Below are positions 9,107-45,151 of a stretch of DNA of 64,000 nucleotides, piece by piece; position 1 is the stretch's first letter, and each line of letters starts with the position of its first letter. Below the pieces are notes generated by a model. It had not been told where the DNA came from. It worked only from the letters and a program-made list of their open reading frames with translations, and made no database searches. Where the stretch lies: contig JAUQPW010000001.1 in assembly GCA_030550175.1 (NCBI GenBank), positions 10,898 to 74,897 of the forward strand. Reading direction: 5' to 3'. The position numbers were made by a program, and so were the translations under genes. The DNA is from a bacterium (GTDB taxonomy: Bacteria; Moduliflexota; Moduliflexia; Moduliflexales; JAUQPW01).

Positions 9107-10750
9107 TTATTTAACAAAATTTAATCCGTGGGGAACCAGTTGTGGAAAAACGTAAGCATACATCATAACGATAAGTCCTACAATAGCCCCTAAAACAACA
9201 CTATGCCATAGGACGAATCGAAAGATTTTACCCTCATTTCCGACCTGATTGGTCGCGGCGGTGGATACTACAATACTTTGAGCATCGATCATCTTGCCCA
9301 TAACACCCCCGGCGCTGTTAGAAGCGGCCATCAGGATGGGATCCATGCCGAGTCGCTCGGCGGTAATCCTTTGAAGACTCCCAAAGAGCGCATTGGAGGC
9401 CGTATCACTTCCGGTCAGAGCTACACCTAACCATCCCAGCATGGCACTGAAGAAGGGAAATAGCCAGCCGGTCCGGGTAAAAGCGAGACCCAGTACAGCA
9501 TCCAGTCCGGAGTATCGTGTCACAAATCCCAGTCCTAACATAGAGGAAATGGCAATCAAGGGCATTTTCATACGCCTCGCCGTCTTTTTAAAGATCCTCC
9601 CCAGTTGAGCCGGAGAACAGCCTGACACAAATCCGGATATAATAGCCGCGATAAAGCATCCGGTTCCGGTGGCAGATAGCCAGTTGAAATCATAGATTGC
9701 CTTTTCTTTAGTTAACTTAGGGACTACCGGTGTGGTTCTGGCTACCGCCTCGTTAAGCCCTGGCCAGGGAAAGGTGTAGGTCACTTTATTGAGTTGTGCC
9801 TTGATAGAGGGAAGCCCCCAAATCAACACCATAATAGATAAAATGAAAAAGGGGAGCCAGGCCACCAGAACTTCTCCGGTAGTATATTTATGCGGAGATA
9901 CTTCCATATGCCTTTCATGTTCGAAACGCCAGAGGGTTCTCGGCTGCCAAAACCGGAGAAAAATAATCATGGCAACCAGAGAAACAATAGCTCCTATAAT
10001 ATCTACCAGGTTGCTGTCTACATAATTAGACCAGTAGAACTGGGTCGCTGCAAAGGAGACGCTGGTTACAAAAATAGCAGGGAAAACTTCAAAGGTCTCT
10101 TGCCAGGATACCATGGTCTTTACAAGCCAGAAAGGGACGATGAGTCCGGTGATGGGAAGAATTCGACCGATCATAGCGTTCAGGTCGGACTCTGGAAGTC
10201 CGGAGACGGCCGCCAAGGTATGAACTGGAGTTCCAATGGCTCCCCAGGCTACTGGAGCAGTATTGGCGATGAGGCAGAGGGCCGCTGCATAAAAAGGTTC
10301 AAAACCAAGACCTACCATAAAGGCTGCCGAAATAGCTACCGGAGCTCCAAATCCGGCAGCCCCTTCAATAAAAGCTCCAAAGGAATAAGCTACCAAGAGA
10401 GCCTGTAGCCTTCGATCTGCAGAAATACCTCCTACAGATTCCTTCATAATTTCAAACTTACCTGTTTCTACCGAAATATCGTAAAGATAAACCGCTGCAA
10501 AGACAATCCAGGCAATTTTGACTAAACCGAAAGCAGCACCGTAAAAAAACGTAGAGATGGATAAATGCCAGGGCATCCCAAAGGCTACGCTAGCCGCTAA
10601 AATGGCTGTGATGGCGCCACCAAAAGCAGCCAGAGCGGCTGAAGTCCTTATTACAGCCAGTAAAAAAAATAAAACAACGACCGGTAAAGCCGCGACAATG
10701 GTGGATAAAATCCAATTATTAAAAGGATCGTAATTTTGTATCCAGGGCAT
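9107..10750 (-). CDS. lldP: L-lactate permease (LctP family)
   Basis: 547 aa with about 12-14 TM segments. The N-terminus MPWIQNYDPF.NW.LS..VAALP and overall hydrophobic pattern are characteristic of LctP/LldP. Confidence 0.8.
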   Translation of the reverse strand: MPWIQNYDPFNNWILSTIVAALPVVVLFFLLAVIRTSAALAAFGGAITAILAASVAFGMPWHLSISTFFYGAAFGLVKIAWIVFAAVYLYDISVETGKFEIMKESVGGISADRRLQALLVAYSFGAFIEGAAGFGAPVAISAAFMVGLGFEPFYAAALCLIANTAPVAWGAIGTPVHTLAAVSGLPESDLNAMIGRILPITGLIVPFWLVKTMVSWQETFEVFPAIFVTSVSFAATQFYWSNYVDSNLVDIIGAIVSLVAMIIFLRFWQPRTLWRFEHERHMEVSPHKYTTGEVLVAWLPFFILSIMVLIWGLPSIKAQLNKVTYTFPWPGLNEAVARTTPVVPKLTKEKAIYDFNWLSATGTGCFIAAIISGFVSGCSPAQLGRIFKKTARRMKMPLIAISSMLGLGFVTRYSGLDAVLGLAFTRTGWLFPFFSAMLGWLGVALTGSDTASNALFGSLQRITAERLGMDPILMAASNSAGGVMGKMIDAQSIVVSTAATNQVGNEGKIFRFVLWHSVVLGAIVGLIVMMYAYVFPQLVPHGLNFVK

Positions 10751-10952
10751 AGCAGGACCTCTTCGTGATCAATCCCAGGTTCCATAAGTTCATATCGGTT
10801 TCTTCTGAGCAAGGGCCAGGACTCTGCCTGCTACAGAAAGACTGTAGAACGCTATGCTACTGATTCTCAGATATGAACTTTTGAAACGGGTTGACGGTTA
10901 ATTGAACTATTAAGAGACAAAGTGAAGGAAGATAAAGACCTTATTTTAAGTT

Positions 10953-11387
10953 TTAAGAAATGTTTTCAGGAGAAGGAATTTTACGGATAATGCTACAAGT
11001 ATTAGAACTTAAAGAGGAAATAACCAATCGGGGAGGTAGAAAAGGAGGGATGTTTAAGCTGATAGATAAAATAATCGTTGGAACAGACAACCCAACCAGG
11101 TTTGTGAAAGCCATGAGTTTCTTTTGTAAGGAAGGTTGGCAGATGGGATTTCTTTTCTCTTTCCATAATGACAGGAGTAATTCATGATCTTCTATGGAAG
11201 ACATGTAGTAAAATAAGCTTTGGGGGAAAAAGAGAATATTCTTTTCAAAGGATAATTTGAAATAAAAATCAGTAAAAGGGTCTGACGGGTCTTCTATTCT
11301 TTCTATAAAGATAGTGAAAAAGTTTCCCAGGGCAAGCAAGGATACGATTAATGGGATGATAAGAAAGTTGGCTCTTCTATCCCTCAT
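10953..11387 (-). CDS. Doubtful ORF in an AT-rich spacer (hypothetical)
   Basis: 144 aa, low-complexity, I/L/S/F-rich, no motif, in a 1.1-kb AT-rich intergenic region. Confidence 0.15.
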   Translation of the reverse strand: MRDRRANFLIIPLIVSLLALGNFFTIFIERIEDPSDPFTDFYFKLSFEKNILFFPQSLFYYMSSIEDHELLLSLWKEKRNPICQPSLQKKLMAFTNLVGLSVPTIILSISLNIPPFLPPRLVISSLSSNTCSIIRKIPSPENIS

Positions 11388-11870
11388 TTTAAATAATCAG
11401 GAATCGATTTTCCCCTCTTACATAAAAAAACTGACCTCTACAGGTCTATCAACGAATATAAAGTAAAGTCTCCCCCTCCATGCAAGCAAGGGAGACAAAG
11501 AAATTTGTTGACAAAAATTCTATCAGCCAACTAAAGTCAGTTTATACTTCCAAGATCACCATTACAATAACCGAATAAAGTAAATACTATACTTTTGCCG
11601 TTTTTAACTCTTAATCCCTGAAGGACTAAGAAGAACTATGAAAAGCATGAGAGTATAGGAGTTTGGGAGTATGGGAGGGTTTAAATCTATACGCCCTTAT
11701 CTTCCTGATTCCATACTCTTCGTGGACAAACCAAATCCACAGTTTAGAAAAAATGCGAAGGTATAGGAACTATACCGATAACTAAAAAAGAAGTCCTTAA
11801 AAGTAACGGGAACTTATAGAGCCAAAAAGGCTGGAGTTCTCGGTTTATTTGATAGGGCAAAACTTCTATT

Positions 11871-13349
11871 ATGGCTAAAGAAGATAAGGGAATTACTGAA
11901 CAAATCAGACCGGTTAAAGCCGGAGAATTGCCATCTTATGAAGTAGCCGAATTACCCACGCCTCCTCCCTTTGGTTTGAAGGGTATTCTAGAGGTTATAG
12001 GACCGGGGGCTATTATTTTAGGAGCTTCCATTGGAAGTGGAGAGTGGCTGGTAGGTCCTGCTGCTACCGTAAAATACGGGGTAGAACTTATCTGGATCAC
12101 AACGGTCGCTGCTATCTTACAAGGGCTTTTCAATATGGAAGCTATACGGTATACTTTGTACACCGGGGAACCTATTTACAGTGGTTTCATGCGACTAAAA
12201 CCGGGTAAATTTTGGGGAGTTTTTTACACTATCTTAGGCTTTTTCCAAATTGGGTGGCCGGGATGGGCTTTGTCTGCGGCAACAGCACTGGCAGCCATTG
12301 CATTGGGTAGAGCGCCAGGGAAAGAAGATAGTGGAACGGTTCTATTTTGGGGCTACATAACCTTTTTTATTGTTATTATTACCTTAGCCGTAGGAGGAAA
12401 AATAGAAAAGACCCTTGAAAAAGTCTCCTGGTTTTTTCTGTTCATGATTTTTGCCTTTTTGCTTGCGGTCAATGTCCTCGTTGCAGCACCACGTGCCCAG
12501 TTGGGAGAGACCTTTTTATCCCTATTCAAATTCGGGACGATTCCACCTGGTGCAGATTGGGCTTTATTGGGGGCTTTCGCGGCTTACTCTGCGGCAGGAG
12601 GTGTTATAAACTGTGCTATCACCAACTGGTTTCGGGATAAGGGTTTTGGAATGGGGGGTGTTGTCGGTTTTATCCCGGGGGCCGTAGGGGGAAGAAGGAT
12701 TAATCTTTCTCCCTTTGGTAAAATCTTTAGAATCACCCCTGAAAATCTCCGCAAATGGAACGATTGGTGGAAATATGCCACTACCGATCAAGGGGTTGTC
12801 TTCGTCGGAGGTTCCTTAATGGGAATGTTTTTAACCATCAATATGGCTACTGCTTTAATTCCTAAAGGTACTGAAATAGGAGGCTGGTCGGTCGCCAACT
12901 TCCAGGCCGTAGAACTGGCAAAGATCGGTGGAAAAATCCTTTGGATTCTAACGGCTTTGAACGGGTTCTGGATTCTCTTCAGTACTCAACTATCGGTTTC
13001 CGATGGCTATATCCGCCAATCCACAGATGCGCTTTGGGTAAGTGATCGCGTTAGAAAATGGTGCCGGGAAGATGTTCGGATTTTGTACTATGCCCTCCTC
13101 GCTATTTTCACCCTTTGGGGATGTATTGCCATCAATTTAGCCCAACCTTTCATTTTAATTTTGATCGGAGCGAACACGGCCGGACTTGTATTTGTTATTG
13201 CTTCGATCCATATCATTCTCGTTAATAGAAAGCTCTTACCTAAAGAGCTTAGACCCCCCCTGTGGCGGGAAATAGGGGTTTTACTCTGTGCTCTTTTTTA
13301 TGGCTTTTTCGTAGCGATGTTGGCAGGTAGACAGGTCGGATTATGGTAA
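11871..13349 (+). CDS. NRAMP-related family membrane transporter (divergent; GPG in place of DPGN)
   Basis: 492 aa with about 11 TMs. The N-terminal region LEVIGPGAIILGASIGSGEWLVGPAA...LIWITTVAAILQ parallels the NRAMP/MntH motif-1 region (DPGN...G...G..LLW). Confidence 0.45.
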   Translation: MAKEDKGITEQIRPVKAGELPSYEVAELPTPPPFGLKGILEVIGPGAIILGASIGSGEWLVGPAATVKYGVELIWITTVAAILQGLFNMEAIRYTLYTGEPIYSGFMRLKPGKFWGVFYTILGFFQIGWPGWALSAATALAAIALGRAPGKEDSGTVLFWGYITFFIVIITLAVGGKIEKTLEKVSWFFLFMIFAFLLAVNVLVAAPRAQLGETFLSLFKFGTIPPGADWALLGAFAAYSAAGGVINCAITNWFRDKGFGMGGVVGFIPGAVGGRRINLSPFGKIFRITPENLRKWNDWWKYATTDQGVVFVGGSLMGMFLTINMATALIPKGTEIGGWSVANFQAVELAKIGGKILWILTALNGFWILFSTQLSVSDGYIRQSTDALWVSDRVRKWCREDVRILYYALLAIFTLWGCIAINLAQPFILILIGANTAGLVFVIASIHIILVNRKLLPKELRPPLWREIGVLLCALFYGFFVAMLAGRQVGLW

Positions 13350-13431
13350 ATGAAGGGAGTAAAAGGTAACAGGCATAGGCAGCAGAGAGCAAATGATGGG
13401 CCACTGCTTTTTGTCTTTTGCCTTCTGATCC

Positions 13432-15300
13432 ATGGAATCCCCGATTTTTATACGAACCTCCCATGAAGATTTAGTTCCCTGGGACCGGGAACAGATCGCC
13501 TACGTACTCATTCGAGAAACTTATACAGACCCGGATACTGCCGCAAGAATCAGTAAAGAGATCGAAGAGTTAATCATCCGATCTAAAATAAAAGTTTTAA
13601 CCAGCGCACTGGTTCGGGAATTGGTGGATGCCAAACTGGTCGAGCTGGGTTTGGAGAGGGCCCATAAAATGCATACCCGTTTGGGAGTCCCTCTCTATGA
13701 TGTCGATCGAATGATTCTACACCAGTATTATGGGGAAAACGATCATCCACCCCTTGGACCTGAAGCAACGAACCTAGCTCTGGCCCAGAGCATCAAGCGT
13801 AATTATGCCCTCCTAAATGTCTTTACACAACAAGTGACCGATGCCCATTTAAGCGGCGAGATCCATCTACAGGGTTTAGGGTTCATTGATCGACTTTATG
13901 CTTCGGGCCAATCGGTAGAGTATGTAAAAAAATTCGGTCTTAAACTTCCCGGAGAGACCATCTCGGCACGACCTGCCAAACATGCAACAGCCTTACTTTC
14001 TCAGTTGGTTGGTTTTACAGAAGCCCTACGTGGACACTTTTCGAGCTCGGTGGAATGGGATGCAGTCAATGTCTTGTTTGCTCCTTACCTCACCGGACTT
14101 TCAGACCATGAAGTTAAACAACTCGCCCAGGCCCTCGCCTTCGAGTTATCTCGACAATCCATTATCCATGGAGGCCTTACGGTCTCCACGGATCTGAATC
14201 TGTACTGGGATATCCCTGTTCACCTGAAAGATACTCCAGCCATAGGACCAGGTGGAGAATACACAGGTAAAATGTATCTGGATTACCTGGACCAATCCCA
14301 AAGATTTCTTCGGGCCATTCTGGAAGTACTTATAGAAGGCGAGGGCCTGGGTAGAACCTTTCCACTGCCAATCCCCATTCTCCACCTTACCGAAGAACTT
14401 TTTCATACTCCTCAGTCTAGGGAATTCTTAGAGCTTGCCGGTATCCTGGCCATTCAAAGGGGTAAAGTTCGTTTTGTATTTGACCGCAAGAAATCCCGAA
14501 GAATCTATGCAGGCTATAAAGAGCAAGAAGTGAAGGGATATCCGCATCCCTGGAAAAGTAGGTACTTTGCCATCCAAAATGTGACCCTTAACCTACCACG
14601 AACTGCCTACCGGGCCCGAGGAAGTGATCTCCACCTTTTTACAGGACTTACAGAAGCCATGGAAGTGGTGGCAGCCGCCCATATGCAGAAACGGGTCTTT
14701 ATTGAAAAGCTCCTGGCAGCCGGAGAAAAGGGTTCGTTGGGAATTCTCATGATGAAACAGGATGGGCAAAGCTATCTGCGACTGGGAGAAGCCCTCTCCC
14801 TGATTAGTGTTGCAGGACTAAATGAAATGGTTCAGATTCACAAGGGGGCCGAACTCCATGAATCCAAAGAAACCCTGGAATTGGGATTAAAGATCATGTC
14901 CCACCTCAAGATGATCACCGAAAAACTCTCCAAACAGCATCATATGCCCTTTGTGGTTACCGGATTATCCCAAGAACCGGTTGCTCAACGTTTTGCCAGG
15001 CTCGACCTCCGACATGCTTCTCCAGAATCCGGACATTTTGTGAAAGGGGATATTGCCCGGGGAGAAGTTTATTACACGAACTCAACCCTTCTGAATCCGG
15101 TAGCTCCCATTTCTCAGTTTGAGAAAATTCGGATAGAAGGCCTCTTTCACAGCCTCACTCCCGCCGAAGCCTGCTCCTTCCTTAAATTAGAGCCGGAAAT
15201 GGAAATTAAAGAAAACTTCCTGAAATTTTTATGGGAGGTTTTTGAAAAAACAGAAAATGAACAGATCGTCCTCCGGGCTTCAACATCTTCCCTTTCCTGA
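13432..15300 (+). CDS. NrdD-like protein: ATP-cone plus class III RNR core homolog lacking the glycyl-radical domain and catalytic cysteines
   Basis: N-terminal ATP-cone (FIRTSHEDLVPWDREQIAYVL...ALVRELVDAKLVELG). AHLSGEIHLQGLGF aligns to E. coli NrdD HERGDIHYHDLDY. NVTLNLPRTAYRA aligns to ISLNLPRIALEA. GEVYYTNSTLL aligns to KGYYTNSFHL. The protein ends ~60 aa later, with no Zn-ribbon and no RVCGY glycine-radical motif. Only one Cys in 622 aa. Confidence 0.6.
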   Translation: MESPIFIRTSHEDLVPWDREQIAYVLIRETYTDPDTAARISKEIEELIIRSKIKVLTSALVRELVDAKLVELGLERAHKMHTRLGVPLYDVDRMILHQYYGENDHPPLGPEATNLALAQSIKRNYALLNVFTQQVTDAHLSGEIHLQGLGFIDRLYASGQSVEYVKKFGLKLPGETISARPAKHATALLSQLVGFTEALRGHFSSSVEWDAVNVLFAPYLTGLSDHEVKQLAQALAFELSRQSIIHGGLTVSTDLNLYWDIPVHLKDTPAIGPGGEYTGKMYLDYLDQSQRFLRAILEVLIEGEGLGRTFPLPIPILHLTEELFHTPQSREFLELAGILAIQRGKVRFVFDRKKSRRIYAGYKEQEVKGYPHPWKSRYFAIQNVTLNLPRTAYRARGSDLHLFTGLTEAMEVVAAAHMQKRVFIEKLLAAGEKGSLGILMMKQDGQSYLRLGEALSLISVAGLNEMVQIHKGAELHESKETLELGLKIMSHLKMITEKLSKQHHMPFVVTGLSQEPVAQRFARLDLRHASPESGHFVKGDIARGEVYYTNSTLLNPVAPISQFEKIRIEGLFHSLTPAEACSFLKLEPEMEIKENFLKFLWEVFEKTENEQIVLRASTSSLS

Positions 15301-15469
15301 GAAGAAGAACTGAAAGCCTTATCCGGCCCAATTAAAAAATCGCCCATTTCCTCCTCGGCCCTCTTCAGCTTCTCGTGAGAGTTTAATGTGCTTATACCAA
15401 TTCTTTATGAACATAAAGAATTAACAGAATGCAAAAAACAATACCACTTCTGATCGAATAGGTTGCATC

Positions 15470-15610
15470 CTGTCAATCCCCTCTCAAGGGGCTGCATCCT
15501 GGATAGAGGCGATCCTGTGGGGTCCTCAAGCCTCAAGCAGGCAGCCCCTTCCCTCCCCGCACGCGGGGAGGGCCAGGGTGGGGGCAGTCTTTATCCTTAT
15601 ATACCTCATT
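15470..15610. repeat. GC-rich hairpin repeat (family B: ccctccccgcaYgcggggagg) with flanking 10-bp inverted repeat
   Basis: 15551-15572 ccctccccgcacgcggggaggg, compare 35701-35721 ccctccccgcatgcggggagg. Inverted repeat aaggggctgc (15493-15502) / gcagcccctt (15542-15551). Confidence 0.55.
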
Positions 15611-15749
15611 TCCATCATGGGGCCTGGGGTCTTACCCCTTGACTCTCAGGTAAGGTCGTTATCCCGACTTCTCTAAAAAGAAAAGTTTTTTCCTTTTTAA
15701 CTTGACAAACTCCTTCTTATTAGAATATGTTGATATACCAACATTTAAG

Positions 15750-15767
15750 TATACTATATATAGTATA
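15750..15767. promoter_or_regulatory. Candidate NrdR box (perfect 18-bp palindrome tatactatatatagtata) upstream of nrdR-nrdJ, next to a second 16-bp near-palindrome (15728-15743) and a TTGACA -35 hexamer (15702-15707)
   Basis: Central 16-mer atactatatatagtat matches the NrdR-box consensus acaCwAtATaTwGtgt at 14 of 16 positions. It lies 23 nt upstream of the nrdR start. Confidence 0.45.
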
Positions 15768-15790
15768 TTTTCTCTTTTTTTTTATCCGAT

Positions 15791-16321
15791 ATGAGATGTC
15801 CTATTTGTGAAAAAGATGAAGATAAGGTCATCGACTCACGTTCGGCCAGGGGGGGCAGTGTCATTCGGCGACGGAGGGAGTGCCTGAGTTGTGGTCATCG
15901 TTTTACCACCTATGAGACCATTGAACAGGCCCCTGTTTATGTGATCAAAAAAGACGGACGCCGGGAGCCTTTTAATAGGGACAAACTGTTAAATGGAATT
16001 TTGATGGCCTGTAAGAAGCGTCCGATTCCCATGGAAACTTTAGAAACCATTGTCCAGGAGATTGAGACCAAAATTCATAATAACTTTCCTATTGAAGTAC
16101 CCAGTCGCGTTATTGGAGAAATGGTCATGGACAAGCTACAAGAGCTGGATGAAGTCGCCTATGTCCGATTTGCTTCTGTCTACCGACAGTTCAAGAATGT
16201 CCAGGAATTCATGGAAGAATCAGAGGCGGTACAAAAACGGCGAATACAAAAGGAAATAGATAAGTCCCAATTATGGATATTTACTCAGAAGCCAGAAATC
16301 GGAAGTCAGAAGTCCTTTTGA
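15791..16321 (+). CDS. nrdR: Transcriptional repressor NrdR
   Basis: N-terminal Zn-ribbon ([15 protein letters not shown]...[12 protein letters not shown]) followed by an ATP-cone ([24 protein letters not shown]). It carries a ~20-aa C-terminal extension relative to typical ~150-aa NrdR. Confidence 0.9.
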
Positions 16322-16363
16322 ATTCTGACGCCTGAGGTCTGGCACTTGTGAGAAGGGGGTATC

Positions 16364-19141
16364 ATGGAGCCATTCAACAACGGTCTTAAAGGAAACCTAG
16401 AGATTCTGAATCGTTCTATCACCGGGTCTGTTGGGAAGGGTTTAAAAATCGAACGATTTTTTACCAAACCTGGCATTCACCCCTTTGATGAACTGGAATG
16501 GGAACTTCGGACGGCTCTCATTACCAATGAAAGGGGAGAAAAAATCTTTGAACAAAAAGATGTTGAAGTTCCCAAAACCTGGTCTCAGACGGCTACCAAC
16601 GTTGTGGTCCAGAAGTATTTCCATGGTACCCTGGGGACCCCCCAGCGGGAACGAAGTGTGAAGACTTTGATCAACCGGGTAGCTCGTACCATTACCGGCT
16701 GGGGAATCCGGGATGGATATTTCGCCTCCGACGAAGATGCAGAGGCCTTTTACCAGGAACTCTGTCATATTCTGGTCAATCAGAAAGCGGCCTTTAACAG
16801 CCCGGTATGGTTTAATGTGGGGATTGAACCCAAACCCCAGTGCTCGGCATGTTTTATAAATTCGGTGGAAGATACCATGGAATCCATTCTGGATCTGGCC
16901 AAGACCGAAGGGATGCTTTTCAAGTACGGTTCAGGAACCGGTACGAATTTCTCGACCCTCCGTTCTTCAAAGGAAAGGCTTTCGGGGGGTGGGATACCCA
17001 GTGGGCCTGTCTCCTTTATGCGCGGATACGATGCCTTCGCGGGGGTCATCAAAAGTGGAGGAAAAACCCGAAGGGCGGCCAAAATGGTGATCCTTAACAT
17101 CGACCACCCAGATATCGTAGGATTTATTAACTGTAAGGCCAACGAAGAAAAAAAGGCCTGGGCGCTTATCGAAGCGGGATACAGTGGAGATTTCAATGTT
17201 CCGGGAGGGGCGTACGATAGCGTTGCTTTCCAGAATGCCAATCACAGTGTTCGGGTTACCGATGAGTTCATGTGGGCGGTTTTAGAAGATAAAGAATGGA
17301 AGACCCGAGCAGTAACTACAGGCCAGATCATGGATACTTATAAGGCTCGGGATCTTATGCGGATGATTGTAGAATCGGCATATATTTGCGGGGATCCGGG
17401 TTTACAATTTGATACGACCATCAATGACTGGCATACCTGCCCGAACACAGGTCGGATTAATGCCAGTAACCCCTGCTCAGAGTATATGCACCTAGATGAT
17501 AGCGCCTGCAATCTCTCTTCCCTGAATCTCATGAAGTTCCGAAAGGACAATGGAGAATTCGATATCGAAGCTTTTCGCCATGCCGTAGATATCATGATCC
17601 TGGCCCAGGACATCATTGTAGATAATGCCAGTTATCCTACTCCGAAAATTGATAAAAACGCCAAAGCTTACCGGCAGTTAGGATTAGGGTATGCGAATTT
17701 GGGAGCGCTACTGATGGCCCGCGGACTGCCCTACGATAGCGATGAGGGAAGGGCTTATGCTGCGACTATTACAGCGCTTATGTGTGGGGAAGCCTATCGG
17801 ATGTCGTCGATCCTTGCAAGTCGAATAGGTCCCTTTGAAGGGTATGCCAAAAATCGGGAACCCATGCTTCGAGTTATCCAAAAACACCGGGAACATGTAG
17901 ACAAAATCAACCGATCTTTGGTACCCCATGAGTTATGGACGGCCGCAAAGGAGGTCTGGGATGAGGCTTATCTCCTGGGAAGTGAGTATGGGTATAGAAA
18001 TTCCCAGGTTACCGTACTGGCCCCTACGGGAACTATTGCGTTCCTTATGGATTGTGACACTACCGGTATAGAACCGGATATCAGCCTGGTTAAGTATAAA
18101 AGGTTGGTAGGTGGAGGACTCCTTAAAATCGTCAATCGAACGGTTCCAGAAGCTTTGAAAAAACTCGGCTACTCTGCAAACCAGATCCAGGCTATTTTAC
18201 AATACATTGACCAGAACGATACCATTGAAGGAGCTCCAGAGCTAAAACCGGAACATCTACCGGTTTTCGATTGTGCTTTCAAACCCTTAAAAGGAACCCG
18301 ATCCATCCACTATAATGGGCATATTAAAATGATGGCTGCCGTTCAGCCTTTCATCAGTGGGGCTATCAGCAAAACGGTTAATATGCCCCATGAAGCAACT
18401 CCCGAAGACATCTGGCAGGTATACATGGATGCCTGGAAGTTAGGATTAAAAGCTATTGCTATTTATCGTGACGGATGTAAGCGGACACAGCCTTTAAGTA
18501 CTTCCAAGGAAAGTCCTGGGGTTAAAACCCTGGGTCCTGAGCCAAAATTAAGCTCACACTCAGTCGATTTCAAGCCGGTCCGTAGACGACTCCCGGATGA
18601 AAGGAAGGCGATCACCCATAAGTTCAGTGTTGCAGGTCATGAGGGGTATATTACGGTGGGTATGTATGAAGACGGGAAACCCGGTGAAATCTTTATTGTT
18701 ATGTCCAAGGAAGGATCTACCATCTCAGGACTCATGGATGCCTTTGCTACCGCTATCTCCATAGCTCTCCAGTATGGGGTCCCCTTAGAAGTTTTGGTGA
18801 ACAAATTCAGTCATATGCGGTTCGAACCTTCTGGATATACGGGGAATAAGCAGATTCCCTTCGCTAAATCCATCATGGATTACATTTTCCGATGGCTGGC
18901 GTTAAAGTTCTTACCGGAAAAGGCAGAAACCCACGTGCTAGAACCTTCTATTCCTAAATCCCTGAGTAACGGCACCCCCGGTTCTGAGGCTCCAGATGAA
19001 GAACGTCTGGGTATATTGGAAAAACAAATCTTCCAAACTCAGGCCGATGCACCCCTTTGCAGTGATTGTGGTTGCTTGATGGTGAGAAATGGTTCTTGCT
19101 ACAAATGCCTGAATTGTGGAGCTACCAGCGGCTGTTCATAA
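16364..19141 (+). CDS. nrdJ: Class II ribonucleotide reductase, adenosylcobalamin-dependent (NrdJ)
   Basis: 925 aa. Active-site loop SNPCSEYMHLDDSACNLSSLNL (thiyl-radical Cys). The C-terminal tail has a CxxC...CxxC cluster (CSDCGCLMVRNGSCYKCLNCG), as in monomeric NrdJ. Sits 43 nt downstream of nrdR. Confidence 0.9.
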   Translation: MEPFNNGLKGNLEILNRSITGSVGKGLKIERFFTKPGIHPFDELEWELRTALITNERGEKIFEQKDVEVPKTWSQTATNVVVQKYFHGTLGTPQRERSVKTLINRVARTITGWGIRDGYFASDEDAEAFYQELCHILVNQKAAFNSPVWFNVGIEPKPQCSACFINSVEDTMESILDLAKTEGMLFKYGSGTGTNFSTLRSSKERLSGGGIPSGPVSFMRGYDAFAGVIKSGGKTRRAAKMVILNIDHPDIVGFINCKANEEKKAWALIEAGYSGDFNVPGGAYDSVAFQNANHSVRVTDEFMWAVLEDKEWKTRAVTTGQIMDTYKARDLMRMIVESAYICGDPGLQFDTTINDWHTCPNTGRINASNPCSEYMHLDDSACNLSSLNLMKFRKDNGEFDIEAFRHAVDIMILAQDIIVDNASYPTPKIDKNAKAYRQLGLGYANLGALLMARGLPYDSDEGRAYAATITALMCGEAYRMSSILASRIGPFEGYAKNREPMLRVIQKHREHVDKINRSLVPHELWTAAKEVWDEAYLLGSEYGYRNSQVTVLAPTGTIAFLMDCDTTGIEPDISLVKYKRLVGGGLLKIVNRTVPEALKKLGYSANQIQAILQYIDQNDTIEGAPELKPEHLPVFDCAFKPLKGTRSIHYNGHIKMMAAVQPFISGAISKTVNMPHEATPEDIWQVYMDAWKLGLKAIAIYRDGCKRTQPLSTSKESPGVKTLGPEPKLSSHSVDFKPVRRRLPDERKAITHKFSVAGHEGYITVGMYEDGKPGEIFIVMSKEGSTISGLMDAFATAISIALQYGVPLEVLVNKFSHMRFEPSGYTGNKQIPFAKSIMDYIFRWLALKFLPEKAETHVLEPSIPKSLSNGTPGSEAPDEERLGILEKQIFQTQADAPLCSDCGCLMVRNGSCYKCLNCGATSGCS

Positions 19142-22166: not shown

Positions 22167-23474
22167 TTAATAGTCCAGCTCCATGGTTTCTAAGTTTCGG
22201 GTAAACGCCTGCAGAAATTGCGCCGCAGTACTTCCATCCACCACGCGATAATCATAGGATAAAGAAGCGTACATCATCCAACGGATGCCGATCATATCTT
22301 CAATTACCACAGGCCGCTTCTTAACTGCACCAATTCCTAAAATCGCAATCTGGGGAGGTTGAATAAGGGGAGTATCTACTACAACCCCGAAAGCCCCGGA
22401 ATTGCTAACGGTAAAGGTTCCTCCCTGGAGTTCTTCAGGCTCGAGTTTTCTAGTTTGAGCTCGATAAATCAGATCCTCAATGGCTTTGGACATTCCCAAT
22501 AAATTTAAGCCTTGAGCCTCTTTAATAATAGGTACAACGACCTTATCTTCCAGAGGTACTGTAAAACCAATATGGATAAATTCCTTTAAAGCAACCGTCC
22601 CATCCTCTATAAGACCGTTTAAAGTAGGAAATTGCTTGAGGGCCTTAACCGTGGCCACCAGGATAAAAGGTAGAAATACCCACTCAGACGACCTTATGAC
22701 CCTCTCTCCCTGGGTTTTTTCCAGGTGCCGGACGATCCGCGTCATATCTACTTCTATCAAAGCGGTTGCATGGGGTACGAGCTGGGGGCCTAAGACCCGG
22801 AGACGTGGGATCGCAGAGATACTAGGTTGCCTGAACATTATTTCCCTTTCCTTACCTTGTGGTTTCTGCACTTCCTCTTCCAGAACTTGAGAGGGAGGAG
22901 GAATCGGCTCGGGTTTCGTTTCTTGAATCCTTTTTTTCGTTTTCAGGTCTGCCAGAATATCCTGCTTCATGATCCTACCACTCGGGCCGCTTCCCTGTTT
23001 CTGCTCAATTTCTTCCAGAGGAATCCCTTCCTTTTCGGCAATAGCCCGGGCCAGGGGAGAAATACGGGGACGTGGGGACGTAGGGACGCCGGGATGCGGG
23101 GGTACCCTTTCGGCCTCCCTATCTTCCTGTCTTTGCGCCTCCATTTCCCCCCGTCCCTCCATCTCCACCTCTCCGCGTCTCCGCGTCTCCGCATCTCCGC
23201 GTCCCTCTATCTCCACCTCCCCCCGTCCCTCCTCTACCTCTGTTTCAATCGAGGCGACTTCTGCCCCCACAGGGACCGTCTCTCCCTCGGCAAACAAGAT
23301 TCGACTGAGTTTTCCTGTGGCCGGAGCCGGCACTTCCGCATTTACTTTATCCGTACTCAGGACCAGAAGGACTTCATCCTTTTTTACAAAATCTCCTTCC
23401 TTTTTGTGCCACTCCAGAATCGTCCCTTCGACTACACTTTCTCCCAATTGGGGTATTGTAACGCTGACTTTCAT
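22167..23474 (-). CDS. sucB: Dihydrolipoamide acyltransferase E2 (2-oxoglutarate dehydrogenase complex), with an unusual E/R/G repeat linker
   Basis: N-terminal lipoyl domain (LSTDKVNAEVPAPATG, lipoyl-Lys). E3-binding domain (SPLARAIAEKEGIPLEEI). Catalytic domain with DYRVVDG (DHR..DG-type). The linker EVEIEGRGDAETRRRGEVEMEGRGEME is encoded by 8-bp tandem repeats. Confidence 0.85.
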   Translation of the reverse strand: MKVSVTIPQLGESVVEGTILEWHKKEGDFVKKDEVLLVLSTDKVNAEVPAPATGKLSRILFAEGETVPVGAEVASIETEVEEGRGEVEIEGRGDAETRRRGEVEMEGRGEMEAQRQEDREAERVPPHPGVPTSPRPRISPLARAIAEKEGIPLEEIEQKQGSGPSGRIMKQDILADLKTKKRIQETKPEPIPPPSQVLEEEVQKPQGKEREIMFRQPSISAIPRLRVLGPQLVPHATALIEVDMTRIVRHLEKTQGERVIRSSEWVFLPFILVATVKALKQFPTLNGLIEDGTVALKEFIHIGFTVPLEDKVVVPIIKEAQGLNLLGMSKAIEDLIYRAQTRKLEPEELQGGTFTVSNSGAFGVVVDTPLIQPPQIAILGIGAVKKRPVVIEDMIGIRWMMYASLSYDYRVVDGSTAAQFLQAFTRNLETMELDY

Positions 23475-23550: not shown

Positions 23551-26500
23551 CTATCCTTTAAGGGCCGTTTCAATAATTTGTCTTTGTTCCTCCTGATGAA
23601 TCCTTAGAGAGCCTGTTGCAGGGCTGGCACTTTCTGGACGGCCCACATAGATGGGTTCTGCATCTCTGAGTTTAGGGAAGAAGGATAAATCTCTCCGGAG
23701 TAATTTACGCAGGCGCGGACTTATATAACCCCAGGCACCCATGTTTTGAGGCTCTTCCTGTACCCAGAAAAGCTCTTGCAGATTGGGATACGTTCGTAAG
23801 AGTTCTTGAAGCCGGGCTTCATGGAAAGGATAGAGTTGCTCCAGACGTAATAGGGCTATGTGACGGATCTGACGTTTTTCCCGCTCTTGCAAGAGCTCAT
23901 AATAAATTTTGCCACTACACAGAATAACTCGAGTTATCGGGTCTTTAGAATTCAATAGGGTATCATCCAGAATTTCCTGAAAATGACCTTTTATCATCTC
24001 CTCAAGGGTTGAAACTGCCCGTGGATGTCGCAACAGACTCTTTGGGGTGGCTACAACGAGGGGTTTACAGGTTCCATCATAGACCTGACGACGCAGGAGG
24101 TGGAAATACTGGGCCGGGGTTGTACAATTGCAGACCTGAATATTATCCTCCGCGCAGAGTTGTAAAAATCGTTCAAGTCGAGCAGAGGAATGTTCCGGTC
24201 CCTGTCCTTCATAGCCATGGGGGAGTAACAGGACAATATCACTGGACTGACTCCATTTTTCTTCGGAACTGGCCAGAAATTGATCGATAATGACCTGAGC
24301 TCCGTTGGCAAAATCACCAAATTGGGCTTCCCAAAGCACCAGAGTGGAAGGATCCGCAACGCTATATCCGTATTCAAAACCGAGTACGGCTGCTTCAGAA
24401 AGAAGGCTATCAAACACATCAAACTTTGCCTGGGTAGGTTCAAGATGGTTCAAGGGTACATATTCCTGTTCGGTTTCATAGTCATAGAGGATGGCATGGC
24501 GCTGGCTAAAAGTACCCCGCGCGCTATCTTCTCCGCTCAACCTTACGTGGATTCCTTCGGTTAGCAAACTACCAAACGCCAGGGCTTCGGCAAAGGCCCA
24601 ATCTATAGGAGCCTGGGGATTGGTGAGGACGGCTCTCCGTTTTTCCAGGAACGAGCTAAGTTTGGGATGTAGCTTAAAATCTGAGGGAAGTGTGGTCATT
24701 CGTTCTGTAATCAGGATTAATCGATCTTTCTCGACGCCTGTATCTGAAAGTTCTTTAGGCTTTGGTTTTGCTTCGTCTATTAAAGGATTCTTGGATAGAC
24801 GAGGGGTCGTTGTGGGCTTGAGGGACTTGACCACTTCCAGGGCCTGTTCAAAGCGTTTGTGAAAATCTGCCGCCATTTCTTCAGCTTCCTCCGGCTTCAA
24901 TTCGTTATCTCGAAGTAACTGCTCGGTATAAATCTGCCGGACCGAGGGATGTTCCTGGATTTTCTTATAAAGCACGGGGTGGGTATAACTGGGTTCATCT
25001 ACTTCGCTGTGACCGTGGCGACGATAGCAAATAAGGTCAATAACTACATCGGTTGCAAACTTTTGCCGATAGGCAAATGCCAACTTTACCACATGGACTG
25101 TTGCTTCCGGATCGTCCCCGTTAACGTGGAATATGGGTACCTGCAACATCTTAGCAATGTCGGTTGCATAGAGCGTAGAACGAGCCTGCTCCGGAGAGGT
25201 GGTAAAACCTATTTGATTATTGATGACAATATGAACGGTACCCCCCGTACGATATCCTCGAAGCTGAGAGAGGTTAAGCGTTTCGGCCACAATGCCCTGA
25301 CCGGCAAAGGCAGCATCTCCATGGATTAAGACCGGGATGACCTTTTTCCTGTTGGTGTCGCCGATCCGCTCCTGTTTAGCCCGGGTCATTCCTTCTACGA
25401 CCGGATTGACGGCTTCCAGATGACTTGGATTTGAGGCCAACGAAAGGTTGATTTTCTTACCGGTGGGGGTTTCGTAGAATCCGGTAGCTCCCAGGTGATA
25501 CTTGACATCTCCAGAACCTTGAGGTGCGGTCGGGTCTATATATTCTTCGAACTCCGAAAAGATTTTTTCATAGGATTTACCGATAATATTGGCCAATACA
25601 TTTAATCGTCCCCGATGGGCCATCCCCATCACGACTTCCACCACTCCCTGTTCTGTGGCTTCGTCTAATAAGGCATCGAGCATAGGAATCAGGGTCTCAG
25701 CCCCTTCGAGGGAAAAGCGCTTATAGCCCACATATCGGGTATGGAGGAATTTCTCAAAGGCCTCGGCGGCATTCAATCTTAAGAGGATTCGGCGCTTGGC
25801 TTCACGGGAAAGTTGGGTTTTATTACGGCAACTCTCCATCCGCTCCTGAAGCCATAATTTTTGCTCCGGGTTTTGGATATTTCTATACTCTACACCGATT
25901 TTCCCACAGTAAGTTTCCCGCAAGGTATCCAAAATATCCCGCAGGGTAGCAACCGACTGGCCTCCCAATCCTCCCGTAATAAACTTTCGATCAAGATCCC
26001 AAATGGTCAATCCATACTGGGCCGGATCCAACTCAGGATGATAGTGAGGTTCATAACCTAAAGGATTGAGATCTGCAAGTAAATGCCCTCGGACCCGATA
26101 AGCATTGATAAGCTGTAACACCCGGGCCTGTTTTTCTATAGCTTCAAGGCTACGGGTTAAATCCAGGAGCTCTTTATTCTCATCCCGTTCCCAGTGGACA
26201 GGTTCATGGGGTAGCTTAAGATCCGTAAAGATTTGCTCATAGAATCCATCTTCTCCCTGGAGCAATTGATGAATTCGAGCCAGGTAGGAACCCGATTCGG
26301 CCCCTTGAATGATCCGGTGGTCATAGGTGCTGGTTAGGGTCATTACTTTACTGACCCCCAATTGAGAGAGGGTTTCCTCGGACATCCCTTGATACTCTGC
26401 CGGATAATCAATCGCACCCGTTGCGATAATGGCTCCTTGTCCCGGCATAAGCCTTGGGACCGAAGCTACCGTACCTATCATTCCAGGATTGGTTAAACTA

Positions 26501-27219
26501 ATAGTCGTGTCCTGAAAATCCTGGAGTGTCAACTTACCCGAGCGAGCCCGCTGAACCACATCGTTATACGCCTTCAGAAATTCAAGGAAGTTCAGTTTAT
26601 GAGCGTTCTTGATATTAGGTACCAGTAAAACCCTGGAGCCATCTTTTTGCTCAACATCTATTGCCAGCCCCAGATTGACCTCGGTCCTCTGAACCTTATG
26701 GGGTTCTCCGTTTAAGACCATAAAGGCCGAGTTCATATTAGGGTAATCCTTCAGGGCTTTAACCATCGCCCAGGCAATAATATGGGTATAAGAAGCCTTC
26801 CCCTGCCCCATCAAACTTAGGTGATGATTGATGATCCGTCTATTTTCTTCCAGTACCTTAACCGGTATAACACGCACAGAAGTAGCCGTCGGCAGGGTTA
26901 AACTGGCCTCCATATTCTCTGCAATCTTTGCCATAACCCCGCGAAGGGCCTTGATTTCTCCCGTAGGTAACGGACGATGGGCTGTGGATAGTTCTTCTTT
27001 TTCCGGCTTCCAGCTTTTAACCTCCGGTCTTTTGCCCTCTCCAGGGGCTCCTCCATTACCTGCCTGAAAATCCCGTTCATAACCCGCAAAAAACCGCCGC
27101 CAACTCTCACTTACCGTTGAAGGGTCCTTCAAGTACTGCTCATAAAGATCCTGGACAAAGTCGGAGTTAAATCCAAACTGCACTATTTTCAAGTCCTTAT
27201 CCGACATTTTCTCTTTCAT
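23551..27219 (-). CDS. sucA: 2-oxoglutarate dehydrogenase E1 component of the OdhA/Kgd type (N-terminal E2-like succinyltransferase domain fused to E1o)
   Basis: 1222 aa, against ~930 for classical SucA. The N-terminal ~350 aa contain the E2 catalytic signature LTSTYDHRIIQGAESGSYL. The remainder is E1o (ThDP-binding GDAAFAGQG region, transketolase-like C-terminus). Sits immediately upstream of the E2 gene. Confidence 0.85.
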   Translation of the reverse strand: MKEKMSDKDLKIVQFGFNSDFVQDLYEQYLKDPSTVSESWRRFFAGYERDFQAGNGGAPGEGKRPEVKSWKPEKEELSTAHRPLPTGEIKALRGVMAKIAENMEASLTLPTATSVRVIPVKVLEENRRIINHHLSLMGQGKASYTHIIAWAMVKALKDYPNMNSAFMVLNGEPHKVQRTEVNLGLAIDVEQKDGSRVLLVPNIKNAHKLNFLEFLKAYNDVVQRARSGKLTLQDFQDTTISLTNPGMIGTVASVPRLMPGQGAIIATGAIDYPAEYQGMSEETLSQLGVSKVMTLTSTYDHRIIQGAESGSYLARIHQLLQGEDGFYEQIFTDLKLPHEPVHWERDENKELLDLTRSLEAIEKQARVLQLINAYRVRGHLLADLNPLGYEPHYHPELDPAQYGLTIWDLDRKFITGGLGGQSVATLRDILDTLRETYCGKIGVEYRNIQNPEQKLWLQERMESCRNKTQLSREAKRRILLRLNAAEAFEKFLHTRYVGYKRFSLEGAETLIPMLDALLDEATEQGVVEVVMGMAHRGRLNVLANIIGKSYEKIFSEFEEYIDPTAPQGSGDVKYHLGATGFYETPTGKKINLSLASNPSHLEAVNPVVEGMTRAKQERIGDTNRKKVIPVLIHGDAAFAGQGIVAETLNLSQLRGYRTGGTVHIVINNQIGFTTSPEQARSTLYATDIAKMLQVPIFHVNGDDPEATVHVVKLAFAYRQKFATDVVIDLICYRRHGHSEVDEPSYTHPVLYKKIQEHPSVRQIYTEQLLRDNELKPEEAEEMAADFHKRFEQALEVVKSLKPTTTPRLSKNPLIDEAKPKPKELSDTGVEKDRLILITERMTTLPSDFKLHPKLSSFLEKRRAVLTNPQAPIDWAFAEALAFGSLLTEGIHVRLSGEDSARGTFSQRHAILYDYETEQEYVPLNHLEPTQAKFDVFDSLLSEAAVLGFEYGYSVADPSTLVLWEAQFGDFANGAQVIIDQFLASSEEKWSQSSDIVLLLPHGYEGQGPEHSSARLERFLQLCAEDNIQVCNCTTPAQYFHLLRRQVYDGTCKPLVVATPKSLLRHPRAVSTLEEMIKGHFQEILDDTLLNSKDPITRVILCSGKIYYELLQEREKRQIRHIALLRLEQLYPFHEARLQELLRTYPNLQELFWVQEEPQNMGAWGYISPRLRKLLRRDLSFFPKLRDAEPIYVGRPESASPATGSLRIHQEEQRQIIETALKG

Positions 27220-41823: not shown

Positions 41824-41943
41824 GGTTTTGAAGATTCCGAGTATTGCACACCTTGTAATTACTGCAAGCAACCTGCAAGGGAAAAACTCCTGTTTATGAG
41901 GGAGTCGGGAGTAAAAAAATATACAAGGAAAAGTGATAACCTT

Positions 41944-42984
41944 ATGTACCCTGAAATTTCCCTTATCCAACGCTTAGAATTGCTTAAGCCACCTCAAAAT
42001 AAAGTATCCATGGTCCTCGATACCGATCCCTACAATGAAATGGATGATCAATTTGCCATCGTCTACTCATTGCTGGCGCCGGAACGCCTGGAAGTGAAGG
42101 CCATTTATGCAGCACCATTTGCCAATGCCAGATCGGGAAACGATGAAAAACGCGGTATGGAAAAGAGTTACGAAGTTGTAAAGGAAATATTGGATAAGCT
42201 GCAAGGACCCGAATTACCCCATATTCCTCCGGTATTTCGAGGATCTGACCGATGGATTTCCGAGGATAATGCAGGATTTAAGGGTACGGCCATTCGGAGT
42301 GAAGCGGCAGAGCATCTGATTCATCTGGTCGAAGCCCAACCAGAAGGTAAATTCCTCTACGTGGTCGGTATTGCGGCTATCACGAATATTGCCTCGGCCA
42401 TTCTACTCAAGCCGGAAATTATCCGAAAAATGGTAGTGGTCTGGCTTGCCGGTCATCCCTATAATTATTACGACACCGACGAGTTCAATCTACGACAGGA
42501 TATTTATGCTTCGCGTGTGATACTGGATTGCGGGGTCCCGCTTGTACGGATACCCTGTCGTAATGTGGCTGAACACTTACTCCTAACCGTGGAAGAGGTA
42601 GAGAATCGCATTAAAGGGCGAGGTGAAATCGGAAATTATCTCTATAAAGCGTACCATGAATATCTCGAAGAGAAGAAGTTCATTTCCAGGCCTATCTGGG
42701 ACATGGCTCCTATTGCCTGGCTTGTTAATCCTACGTGGGTCGAGACGGTAATTATTCCCACTCCGCTCCTCGCAGTCAGCCCGCTGCAAACCGAAGGCTA
42801 CTCCACCCCCTTCCTGACCCAAAAACTAACGTTTGAGAAAAACAGAAAAGCTTACTGTACCTGGAACAATGATCCACGTCGTCATTTGACCCGAGAAGCT
42901 TACAGGTTGAACCGGGATGCTATCTTCCAGGACTTTTACCATCGATTAGATAAATATAGGGGGGTTGGAAAAATTGAAAATTAA
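41944..42984 (+). CDS. Inosine-uridine-preferring nucleoside hydrolase family protein (the ORF opens at 41896)
   Basis: DTDPYNEMDDQFAIVYSLL matches the IUNH aspartate cluster DTD.G.DD..A. Confidence 0.75.
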   Translation: MYPEISLIQRLELLKPPQNKVSMVLDTDPYNEMDDQFAIVYSLLAPERLEVKAIYAAPFANARSGNDEKRGMEKSYEVVKEILDKLQGPELPHIPPVFRGSDRWISEDNAGFKGTAIRSEAAEHLIHLVEAQPEGKFLYVVGIAAITNIASAILLKPEIIRKMVVVWLAGHPYNYYDTDEFNLRQDIYASRVILDCGVPLVRIPCRNVAEHLLLTVEEVENRIKGRGEIGNYLYKAYHEYLEEKKFISRPIWDMAPIAWLVNPTWVETVIIPTPLLAVSPLQTEGYSTPFLTQKLTFEKNRKAYCTWNNDPRRHLTREAYRLNRDAIFQDFYHRLDKYRGVGKIEN

Positions 42985-43004
42985 ATCGGCAAAATGAAAA
43001 TGAA

Positions 43005-43418
43005 ATGGTAAAACCTTTAATCGTTCTTGATACCAATGTCTTCGTCGCGGCAGGTTTTAACCCGGAAAGTTCATCGGCGCAGATCCTCGAACAGATAAGG
43101 AGTGGACAGATCCGAATGGTCTGGAATGAACAGATCCGACAGGAAATTCAGCATATTCTTCGGAAGATCCCCCATCTCTCCTGGGAACAGGTATCCAGCT
43201 TATTCAAAGAAGAAGATTACTACACGGGTGAAACCCATTTTGAGAAATTTAACTTTATCGCCGATCCGGACGATCGAAAGTTTGTAGCCCTTTCGGAGGC
43301 TAGCGGAGCGGTCCTGATTACCATGGATTACGACCTTTTGAGTATTCGTAATGAGGTATCGATACCCATTCTGACACCTGGTGAGTTCTTGAGTAATTCG
43401 ACTCGATTCATCAGGTAG
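43005..43418 (+). CDS. PIN-domain protein (VapC-like toxin fold, COG1569-type)
   Basis: LIVLDTNVFVAA N-terminal acidic motif plus distal D residues (FIADPDDRKFVALSEA...ITMDYD). Confidence 0.7.
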   Translation: MVKPLIVLDTNVFVAAGFNPESSSAQILEQIRSGQIRMVWNEQIRQEIQHILRKIPHLSWEQVSSLFKEEDYYTGETHFEKFNFIADPDDRKFVALSEASGAVLITMDYDLLSIRNEVSIPILTPGEFLSNSTRFIR

Positions 43419-43426
43419 AAATAAGT

Positions 43427-43810: not shown

Positions 43811-43851
43811 GACTATCTTGTTAGAGCCGCCCGGGGAAAGGAGCGAACAAT

Positions 43852-44493: not shown

Positions 44494-44505
44494 TCTAATG
44501 AATAG

Positions 44506-45135: not shown

Positions 45136-45151
45136 TAGGTGGAAAAAGAAA

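Follow-up and report, generated by a model that had tools for sequence, protein, structure and literature searches.

The locus and its NrdD homologue

The sequence under study is a stretch of 64,000 nucleotides of contig JAUQPW010000001.1, from a bacterium of the Moduliflexales (hereafter the window, meaning the whole 64-kb stretch of DNA that was analysed). It carries on its forward strand an open reading frame (ORF) which encodes a homologue of NrdD, the class III ribonucleotide reductase (RNR). A gene for an Nramp-like transporter precedes it on the same strand. On that strand, too, nrdR and the B12-dependent nrdJ follow downstream, as correctly described in an initial annotation made from the letters alone. 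The protein has retained the fold of NrdD and a cone-like N-terminal domain, it has lost the elements by which a radical is made and used, its gene is under purifying selection, and it belongs to a large family with the same losses; it will be called here the inactive NrdD. P-numbers denote protein cluster representatives and L-numbers loci of related genomes. The features of the gene, in window positions, are the following:

13432..15300, + strand: ORF of the inactive nrdD, 622 amino acids (aa), ATG start; defined by profile, fold and selection data
13444..13707, + strand: cone-like domain (residues 5-81) with HxRLGVPLYD (residues 78-92), the most conserved part of the whole inactive family
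13732..13752, + strand: degenerate NxN flap, GENDHPP where the canonical sequence is KENANVP
13891..13914, + strand: site of the active-site Cys of RPYCSGQS, here RLYASGQS (Cys to Ala)
13924..13956, + strand: VKKFGLKLPGE, aligned to the specificity-site beta-hairpin of P. copri NrdD (PMC11226230)
14119..14187, + strand: loop 2 region (residues 230-252), first half conserved, ARGGQ changed to IHGGL
14485..14565, + strand: remnant of the Cys-radical (finger) loop, AKISECCRLSFKL changed to RRIYAGYK, with a 6-residue deletion and no Cys
14578..14616, + strand: retained barrel motif NVTLNLPRTAYRA (residues 383-395), N387 being invariant in inactive and active sets
14953..15006, + strand: remodelled TPAE phosphate-binding loop, EQTPAESTAY changed to TGLSQEPVAQ
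15061..15093, + strand: retained barrel motif GEVYYTNSTLL (residues 544-554), from the alignment
15187..15300, + strand: poorly constrained C-terminal tail and stop codon, ending where the canonical Zn ribbon would start

Homology to NrdD was established in several ways. The Pfam NRDD profile (PF13597) matched residues 109-609 at profile positions 8-499 of 562 (E=3.3e-67, 227.9 bits), and the three motifs from which the relationship had been proposed, AHLSGEIHLQGLGF at residues 138-151, NVTLNLPRTAYRA and GEVYYTNSTLL, are all present and no chance resemblance. An AlphaFold2 model built on 64 homologs (pLDDT 77, pTM 0.79) retrieved only NrdD structures at ranks 1-36 of the Protein Data Bank (PDB) in Foldseek, with E down to 2.6e-22 and with those of S. 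thermophilus, P. copri, T. maritima and phage T4 among them; in this model the ten-stranded alpha/beta barrel of the NRDD fold is present. The best NCBIfam model was TIGR02487 (NrdD), with 195.5 bits against an equivalog cut-off of 326.35, and the protein scored far under the cut-offs of all other NrdD models. When 5.8 billion proteins were searched, relatives of equally short length numbered three, at 76-80% identity, and were accompanied by thousands of full-length NrdDs (about 713 aa) which are 50-53% identical over the whole 622 aa; in addition, a cluster listing held a 96%-identical variant, P0121.

The nearest canonical enzymes, at this 50-53% identity, form a redoxin-associated clade with a SECCRL loop, found in metagenome-assembled genomes (MAGs) of Thermodesulfobacteriota and Margulisiibacteriota, and they sit in operons of nrdD, Thioredoxin_3 and radical-SAM nrdG. 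The window protein has in common with them the barrel, the divergent cone-like N-terminus and the motifs HTRLGxPLYD, NLPR, GLNE, RFAKLD and YYTNS. Unlike them, it has no redoxin or nrdG gene beside it and lacks five elements, as determined by aligning the window clade to these full-length relatives: the NxN flap, the loop with the thiyl-radical Cys, the TPAE loop, the Zn ribbon and the glycyl-radical domain.

In P. copri NrdD, the NxN flap becomes ordered when it covers the substrate (PMC11226230). The Cys of the RPYCSGQS site, which is Ala in the window protein, is retained in P0003, P0004 and P0249. A single Cys, C581, is left among the 622 residues, as had been counted beforehand. The description of the protein as cysteine-less is adequate for the window protein, which has none in the loop, and for its closest relative, but it does not extend to three sister lineages with a Cys at or near the old loop, P0003 even keeping CC there. 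In these lineages the rest of the motif is gone, so the stray Cys has evidently been released from constraint.

At the other end, truncation after YYTNS was rightly recognised, although the distance is 71 residues and not the 60 or so first given. About 95 C-terminal residues of the full-length relatives are absent, which in those proteins hold the CxxC..CxxC Zn ribbon and the RITGYF glycyl-radical motif; the alignment thus bears out the loss of both. A tblastn search with six canonical C-termini over the window and four sister loci revealed neither a remnant of these parts nor any downstream or nearby ORF that might supply a glycyl-radical domain as a spare part. The matches stop at the stop codon of the inactive gene, and translation read through that codon gave nothing recognisable. 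By the same program, no redoxin gene was found in the window or the four sister loci, nor nrdG in the window or the flanks of the sister loci, the rest of the genome lying outside this search. Furthermore, nrdD and nrdG are absent within 8-10 kb of the inactive gene in twelve related loci.

The specificity site was mapped by sequence alignment to P. copri NrdD, and the mapping was confined to the hairpin and the Gln of loop 2, because the residue numbers of the paper and those of the PDB chain do not match cleanly. Within the inactive family, only the window clade, the part closest to the canonical enzymes, has retained the hairpin (KKFGLKLP) and loop 2; the wider family has not. In loop 2, the Leu of IHGGL takes the place of a Gln whose aligned counterpart in P. 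copri NrdD contacts the substrate. Since the elements for making and using the glycyl and thiyl radicals, as well as most of those which hold the substrate triphosphate, have been lost, ribonucleotide reduction by this protein is impossible.

Selection on the inactive gene

Codon alignments were made for five orthologous lineages (the window, L061, L001, L003 and L006). Between the window and L061, whose inactive NrdDs are 96% identical, the ratio of non-synonymous to synonymous substitution rates (dN/dS) of the gene was 0.118 at dS = 0.16, in the range of its neighbours in the same comparison (0.09 for the Nramp-like gene, 0.19 for nrdR and 0.06 for nrdJ). For the other ortholog pairs dN was 0.12-0.15 with dS saturated, and dN/dS was 0.03-0.06 in pairs where dS could still be estimated. 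In the more distant sub-clade around P0249, the inactive NrdDs of L072 and L074 are 71% identical and their NrdJ proteins 78%.

Constraint is distributed unevenly along the protein. The mean proportion of non-synonymous differences (pN) was lowest in the cone-like domain (0.061), intermediate in the barrel (0.09-0.14), and highest in the C-terminal tail (0.26) and the former Cys loop (0.358), the loop evolving about 6 times faster than the N-terminal domain. Relaxation is limited to these last two segments, which is the pattern expected once an active-site loop has been abandoned and the remainder is still needed. ORFs are intact in at least eight lineages, across saturated synonymous divergence: the five lineages at 76-96% identity and the sub-clade at about 50% share the same truncation, and none of them carries a frameshifted full-length nrdD. 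Therefore the gene is under purifying selection and is no pseudogene, in agreement with the earlier view of a maintained, non-catalytic paralog, and the protein, with its catalytic residues lost and its sequence still selected, is a pseudoenzyme.

The N-terminal cone-like domain

The initial annotation had also assigned an ATP-cone to the N-terminus, which calls for correction at the level of the Pfam threshold and of the sequence signature. The ATP-cone profile (PF03477) gave 19.3 bits, under its gathering threshold of 25.8, and I-R-T-S stands in place of the V-K-R-D-G of canonical cones. In the AlphaFold2 model, residues 6-8, 14-16 and 55-57 form strands and residues 19-30, 34-51, 58-71 and 75-81 form helices, a beta-hairpin and helices whose predicted topology fits a cone. 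Profile-profile alignment to canonical cones with hhalign kept 66 columns in register (E=9.4e-5, with a probability of only 58.8%). As this alignment is in register, with R-T-S replacing K-R-D-G, the domain appears to be divergent and derived from a cone, while the missing signature and the low Pfam score make binding of ATP or dATP uncertain.

A family without the Cys loop

To determine the extent of the family, 1.84 billion cluster representatives were searched exhaustively with HMMER and the hits were placed on a canonical NrdD profile, which left 137 well-covered representatives. All five elements are kept in 56 of these and all five are lost in 52; about 15 more keep the Zn ribbon and lack the Cys loop, and in these either Thr, Arg, Asp, Glu, Asn or Ile occupies the place of the radical Gly or a deletion has removed the glycyl-radical domain. 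Altogether the Cys loop is absent from 68 of the 137, and all 68 fall on one side of a single bipartition, recovered in 91 of 100 neighbour-joining (NJ) bootstraps. The window clade and P0249 were recovered together in 100 of 100. The window protein belongs to the family by the joint absence of the flap, Cys and TPAE loops, by the motifs VRTS..WDRxRI..AL.RET and HxRLGVPLYD, and by its grouping in the tree with the inactive representatives.

Conservation among 65 inactive representatives peaks in the N-terminal module, with the pattern VRTS..W(D/N)RxRI..AL.RET...LTxxLxRELVxAKLxExGL...HxRLGVPLYD, where L26 is 100% conserved and R83, L84 and G85 reach 95-98%. The barrel motifs NLPR, GLNE and RFAxLD are also retained across the family.

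Proteins of about 750 aa make up the largest sub-group, for which a search with one member returned 498 clusters. Its named members come almost exclusively from Candidatus Hydrogenedentes/Hydrogenedentota, none of them reaches an NCBIfam cut-off, and in public databases they are annotated as 'hypothetical protein' or 'anaerobic ribonucleoside-triphosphate reductase'. They show the same five losses, the same truncation point and the same cone-like module as the window protein, from which they differ in an identity of only 32-39% and in an additional canonical ATP-cone (70-106 bits, VKRDGR...) placed ahead of the divergent cone-like domain.

Among the homologs without a Cys loop, P0285, P0275, P0295, P0259, P0261, P0265, P0273 and P0326 have a four-Cys Zn ribbon and bear at the glycyl-radical position Thr (RVTTYY), Arg (RITRYY), Asp (RVTDYY), Ile, Glu or Asn. 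Judged by these residues, the homologs which keep the Zn ribbon resemble intermediate stages on the way to losing the radical machinery.

Full-text literature searches on truncated, inactive or NrdD-like class III homologs yielded no description of such a family, in line with the initial annotation, and a single passing mention which may concern it: a table entry for Chloracidobacterium reading 'NrdD-like paralog (no NrdG)' in PMC12816986. The likeness, an NrdD-like gene in genomes lacking the activase, is taken from the table entry and not from sequence. In the RNR phylogeny of Burnim et al., proteins of unusual length were removed and inactive members are not discussed (PMC9531940). A survey of glycyl-radical enzymes saw only Gly at the radical position of curated NrdDs (IPR012833; PMC11528403), which is to be expected, the inactive proteins scoring under the TIGR02487 threshold.

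Gene neighbourhood and control regions

Around the inactive nrdD, the following features were recognised:

11508..11537, + strand: promoter-like TTGACA-18-TAAAGT, a consensus match only; candidate promoter of the unit formed by the Nramp-like gene and the inactive nrdD
11871..13349, + strand: gene for an Nramp-like divalent-metal transporter (NCBIfam NF037982, E=6.7e-51), 83 bp upstream of the inactive nrdD
15702..15766, + strand: nrdR-nrdJ control region, with a promoter-like TTGACA (15702), the palindrome ATGTTGATATACCAACAT (15727-15744) and the NrdR box ATACTATATATAGTAT (15751-15766)
15791..16321, + strand: nrdR, coding for a repressor with Zn_ribbon_NrdR and a canonical ATP-cone
16364..19141, + strand: nrdJ, coding for a B12-dependent class II RNR (NF005122, 1490 bits) of 925 aa with no ATP-cone

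The order Nramp-like gene, inactive nrdD, nrdR, nrdJ is common to the window, L061 and L001. Inactive nrdD, nrdR and nrdJ also follow one another on the same strand in L072, L074 and L075, which were found by a metagenome scan and whose inactive NrdDs are about 50% identical to that of the window. The triad is therefore present in six of the eight lineages of this sub-clade, across deep divergence, and the flanking genes vary.

The Nramp-like gene and the inactive nrdD are probably co-transcribed; only a weak promoter-like site lies directly upstream of the latter. Their pairing is confined to four of the five close lineages (the gap is 5 bp in L003), and the notion that linkage to this transporter is a trait of the whole family was consequently rejected. 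The transporter itself had no Pfam match at all, PF01566 included. Between the TTGACA at 11508 and its start codon there is a leader or intergenic stretch of about 360 nt (region 11388-11870). No Rfam match was obtained in a scan of the window for riboswitches and other RNA families, this leader and the spacer between the inactive nrdD and nrdR included.

That spacer measures 490 bp, and both the NrdR boxes and the promoter-like site fall within it. L061 and L001 show conservation of the box, for which L072 and L074 have counterparts, and in each of L001, L072 and L074 the boxes are paired, 31-34 bp apart. The spacer also includes a G+C-rich segment (15460-15650) with a perfect 9-bp GC hairpin, CCCTCCCCGCACGCGGGGAGGG, conserved in L061; as a structured RNA this segment was rejected, its z-score being only -1.9 and its sequence unconserved in L001. 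In L063 and L064, a 71-aa ORF is called at the corresponding place.

In genomes of Margulisiibacteriota, Saganbacteria and WOR-1, loci L008-L053 present tandem nrdD genes in the order nrdR, nrdD, nrdD, redoxin-like gene, as in L010, where the two copies (9950-12049 and 12051-14201) both carry all catalytic motifs; nrdG was undetected in most of these loci. They were considered as possible pairs of an inactive and an active copy, which was rejected. As both copies are canonical, the tandem loci are uninformative on the inactive family.

Other observations in the window and at related loci

The nrdJ gene of L001 (12722-17956) encodes 1744 aa with two inteins (Intein_splicing, LAGLIDADG_3, Hint_2), none of which is found in the nrdJ of the window. 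On the minus strand of the window, 23551-27219 encodes a Kgd/OdhA-type fused 2-oxoglutarate dehydrogenase of 1222 aa (E2-like plus E1), and 22167-23474 a separate E2 adjoining it, in a source with about 46% G+C; this type of fusion is usually associated with Actinomycetota. Some 26 kb away from the nrd genes, at 41896-51682, genes for nucleoside salvage are clustered; they code for an inosine-uridine nucleoside hydrolase, a binding protein of the Bmp/PnrA type, an ABC ATPase and two permeases.

At the related loci, L003 (3050-4495) and L006 (2801-4237) both encode, a few kb upstream of the inactive nrdD, a conserved protein of about 480 aa in which a TubZ-like tubulin is fused to HEAT repeats. 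An [FeFe]-hydrogenase with a NuoF-like subunit lies directly upstream of it in L072 (3255-6984) and L074 (4239-7932), so that the carriers of the gene include likely anaerobes. In contrast, haem-copper oxidase assembly genes are found nearby in L070, a carrier from Hydrogenedentota. In L078, also from Hydrogenedentota, about 330 bp separate the inactive nrdD from the start of a downstream Mu-like prophage (10597-18268), which has a phage capsid gene and Portal_Mu.

Interpretation

The reading which we favour, at a probability of roughly 0.55, is that the inactive NrdD is a pseudoenzyme descended from a redoxin-type class III RNR and that it plays a non-catalytic part in the supply of deoxyribonucleoside triphosphates (dNTPs) through its cone-like module. 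The ten-stranded barrel, kept together with the cone-derived domain, would serve as a scaffold, and the conserved module would work without catalysis, either by sensing a nucleotide or by meeting a protein partner of deoxyribonucleotide supply. In the window lineage the likely partners would be the products of the accompanying genes, NrdR and/or the cone-less NrdJ, and a role in dNTP homeostasis together with one or both of them seems the most economical idea. Cones which act from another RNR subunit have precedents (PMC5794259). We infer, then, a regulatory or scaffolding function, in which the module may bind a nucleotide, may contact NrdR or NrdJ, and may regulate in one direction or the other.

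Several findings weigh against this. The negative searches for nrdD and nrdG cover 64 kb and the locus flanks, and an active nrdD-nrdG pair may be encoded elsewhere in the genome. The cone-like domain is without KRDG and under the Pfam threshold. No NrdR box was found upstream of the inactive gene, the boxes being restricted to the spacer before nrdR, and the gene, by the position of the promoter-like site, appears to be transcribed separately; thus it adjoins the nrdR-nrdJ operon and is not visibly part of it. In L003 and L006 it adjoins pnp instead of nrdR-nrdJ. Among five loci from Hydrogenedentota, only one has nrdR next to the inactive gene (immediately upstream), and another places the gene near guaA, guaB and dnaX. 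As canonical relatives in Margulisiibacteriota also often show nrdR followed by nrdD, the link with nrdR may be inherited gene order and not coupling. Moreover, the NJ tree is a rough one in which long-branch attraction could inflate the support for monophyly, and the specificity-site hairpin and loop 2 are unconserved in the wider family, which argues against a dNTP-effector-binding role common to all members.

A bolder extension, to be entertained only tentatively, is that the monophyletic, radical-dead family as a whole consists of cone-based nucleotide sensors which control deoxyribonucleotide supply in trans. By one route, ATP/dATP-dependent control of overall activity would be lent to the cone-less NrdJ; by a second, the protein would be a co-regulator joining NrdR oligomers through cone-cone contacts. 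NrdR, encoded next door, senses ATP and dATP with its ATP-cone, and the inactive NrdD family is likewise built on cones or cone-derived domains. The two proteins are otherwise dissimilar, NrdR being a DNA-binding protein of 150-180 aa with a Zn ribbon and no barrel, and the inactive NrdD having no evident DNA-binding domain.

Among the rival explanations, the one which survives best, though still unlikely, is a neofunctionalised enzyme whose barrel now serves a reaction without radicals, such as the transformation of another nucleotide or of a metabolite, or binds a ligand outside RNR regulation. Many positions invariant in canonical enzymes have been exchanged for residues which are fixed in the window clade (among them H159L, D199G, K245G, G259E and the change of EQTPAESTAY to TGLSQEPVAQ), a pattern of a remodelled pocket rather than of random decay; selection over the barrel core is strong, and the gene context in Hydrogenedentota is variable. 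Nevertheless, no new cluster of conserved His, Cys, Asp or Glu runs through the family, whose conservation sits in the N-terminal cone-like module and not around the former active site, and the former finger loop is the least constrained segment of all.

It is less likely still that the protein acts as a prozyme-like partner, forming heterodimers with an active NrdD encoded elsewhere and modulating it. NrdD is a dimer, the hairpin and the part of loop 2 retained in the window clade lie at its dimer interface, and L072 and L074, with their [FeFe]-hydrogenase clusters, come from likely anaerobes. In other families, inactive paralogs maintained by selection bind and activate or regulate their active cousins, namely the prozyme of trypanosomatid S-adenosylmethionine decarboxylase (PMC5201418) and the deoxyhypusine synthase paralog (PMC3663545); as their folds are unrelated to that of NrdD, the likeness is conceptual. 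On the other hand, nrdD and nrdG are missing from the window and from the vicinity of the gene in the twelve related loci, and the companion which travels with it is nrdJ. The Chloracidobacterium entry, which may concern the same family or another one, lists an NrdD-like paralog without NrdG (PMC12816986).

A role tied to the Nramp-like transporter, such as metal sensing or chaperoning, with the adjacency to nrdR-nrdJ being incidental, deserves little credence. The short gaps between the two genes (83 bp in the window, 5 bp in L003), their pairing in four of the five close lineages and the position of the better promoter-like site, before the transporter gene, are what it would explain, but neither L006 nor the P0249-like sub-clade (L072, L074) nor any of the Hydrogenedentota loci shows the pairing, and in the window protein, with its one Cys, no metal-binding motif is evident.

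A slowly decaying relic without present function would account for the loss of all catalytic parts and for the absence of activase and redoxin genes from the loci examined; it is highly improbable, being already contradicted by intact ORFs in at least eight lineages, by dN/dS values of 0.04-0.12, on a par with neighbouring housekeeping genes, by a constraint that varies with the region and by the hundreds of family members. Last, a functional RNR to which a glycyl-radical spare part or another cofactor supplies the radical in trans can practically be set aside, for although spare-part proteins of this kind exist for pyruvate formate-lyase (PMC8683613), the window protein has no finger-loop Cys to carry a thiyl radical, which contradicts this reading for it, the substrate-holding elements, NxN flap and TPAE loop, have been lost, and the loci contain no ORF resembling a glycyl-radical domain.

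Outside class III, the nearest analogy to a non-catalytic pseudoenzyme is found in betaherpesviruses, whose inactive homologs of the class I RNR large subunit (M45/vIRA of murine cytomegalovirus) are likewise no reductases and have been put to non-catalytic use (bioRxiv 10.1101/324590; PMC12845177). It is an analogy only: the viral proteins belong to another RNR class, are directed at eukaryotes (inhibition of necroptosis mediated by the RIP homotypic interaction motif, RHIM) and bear no relation to NrdR or NrdJ.

Implications

The regulation of RNR is a much-studied case of allostery, with the ATP-cone as its master switch. Homologs of the enzyme which are dead to its chemistry, maintained by selection and equipped with cones or their derivatives would represent either an unknown regulator of dNTP homeostasis or a new use for the RNR barrel, and they make up a pseudoenzyme branch of class III RNR which is large and seems not to have been studied. 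If the family did act as nucleotide sensors, a new layer of RNR regulation would be added and the glycyl-radical superfamily would gain its first pseudoenzyme with a defined role. Should the NrdD-like paralog of Chloracidobacterium (PMC12816986) prove to belong to it, a cultured organism would be at hand. There is also a consequence for genome interpretation: since inactive proteins bear the annotation 'anaerobic ribonucleoside-triphosphate reductase', a class III RNR, and with it an anaerobic supply of dNTPs, would be wrongly attributed to Hydrogenedentota and related MAGs when their metabolism is reconstructed.

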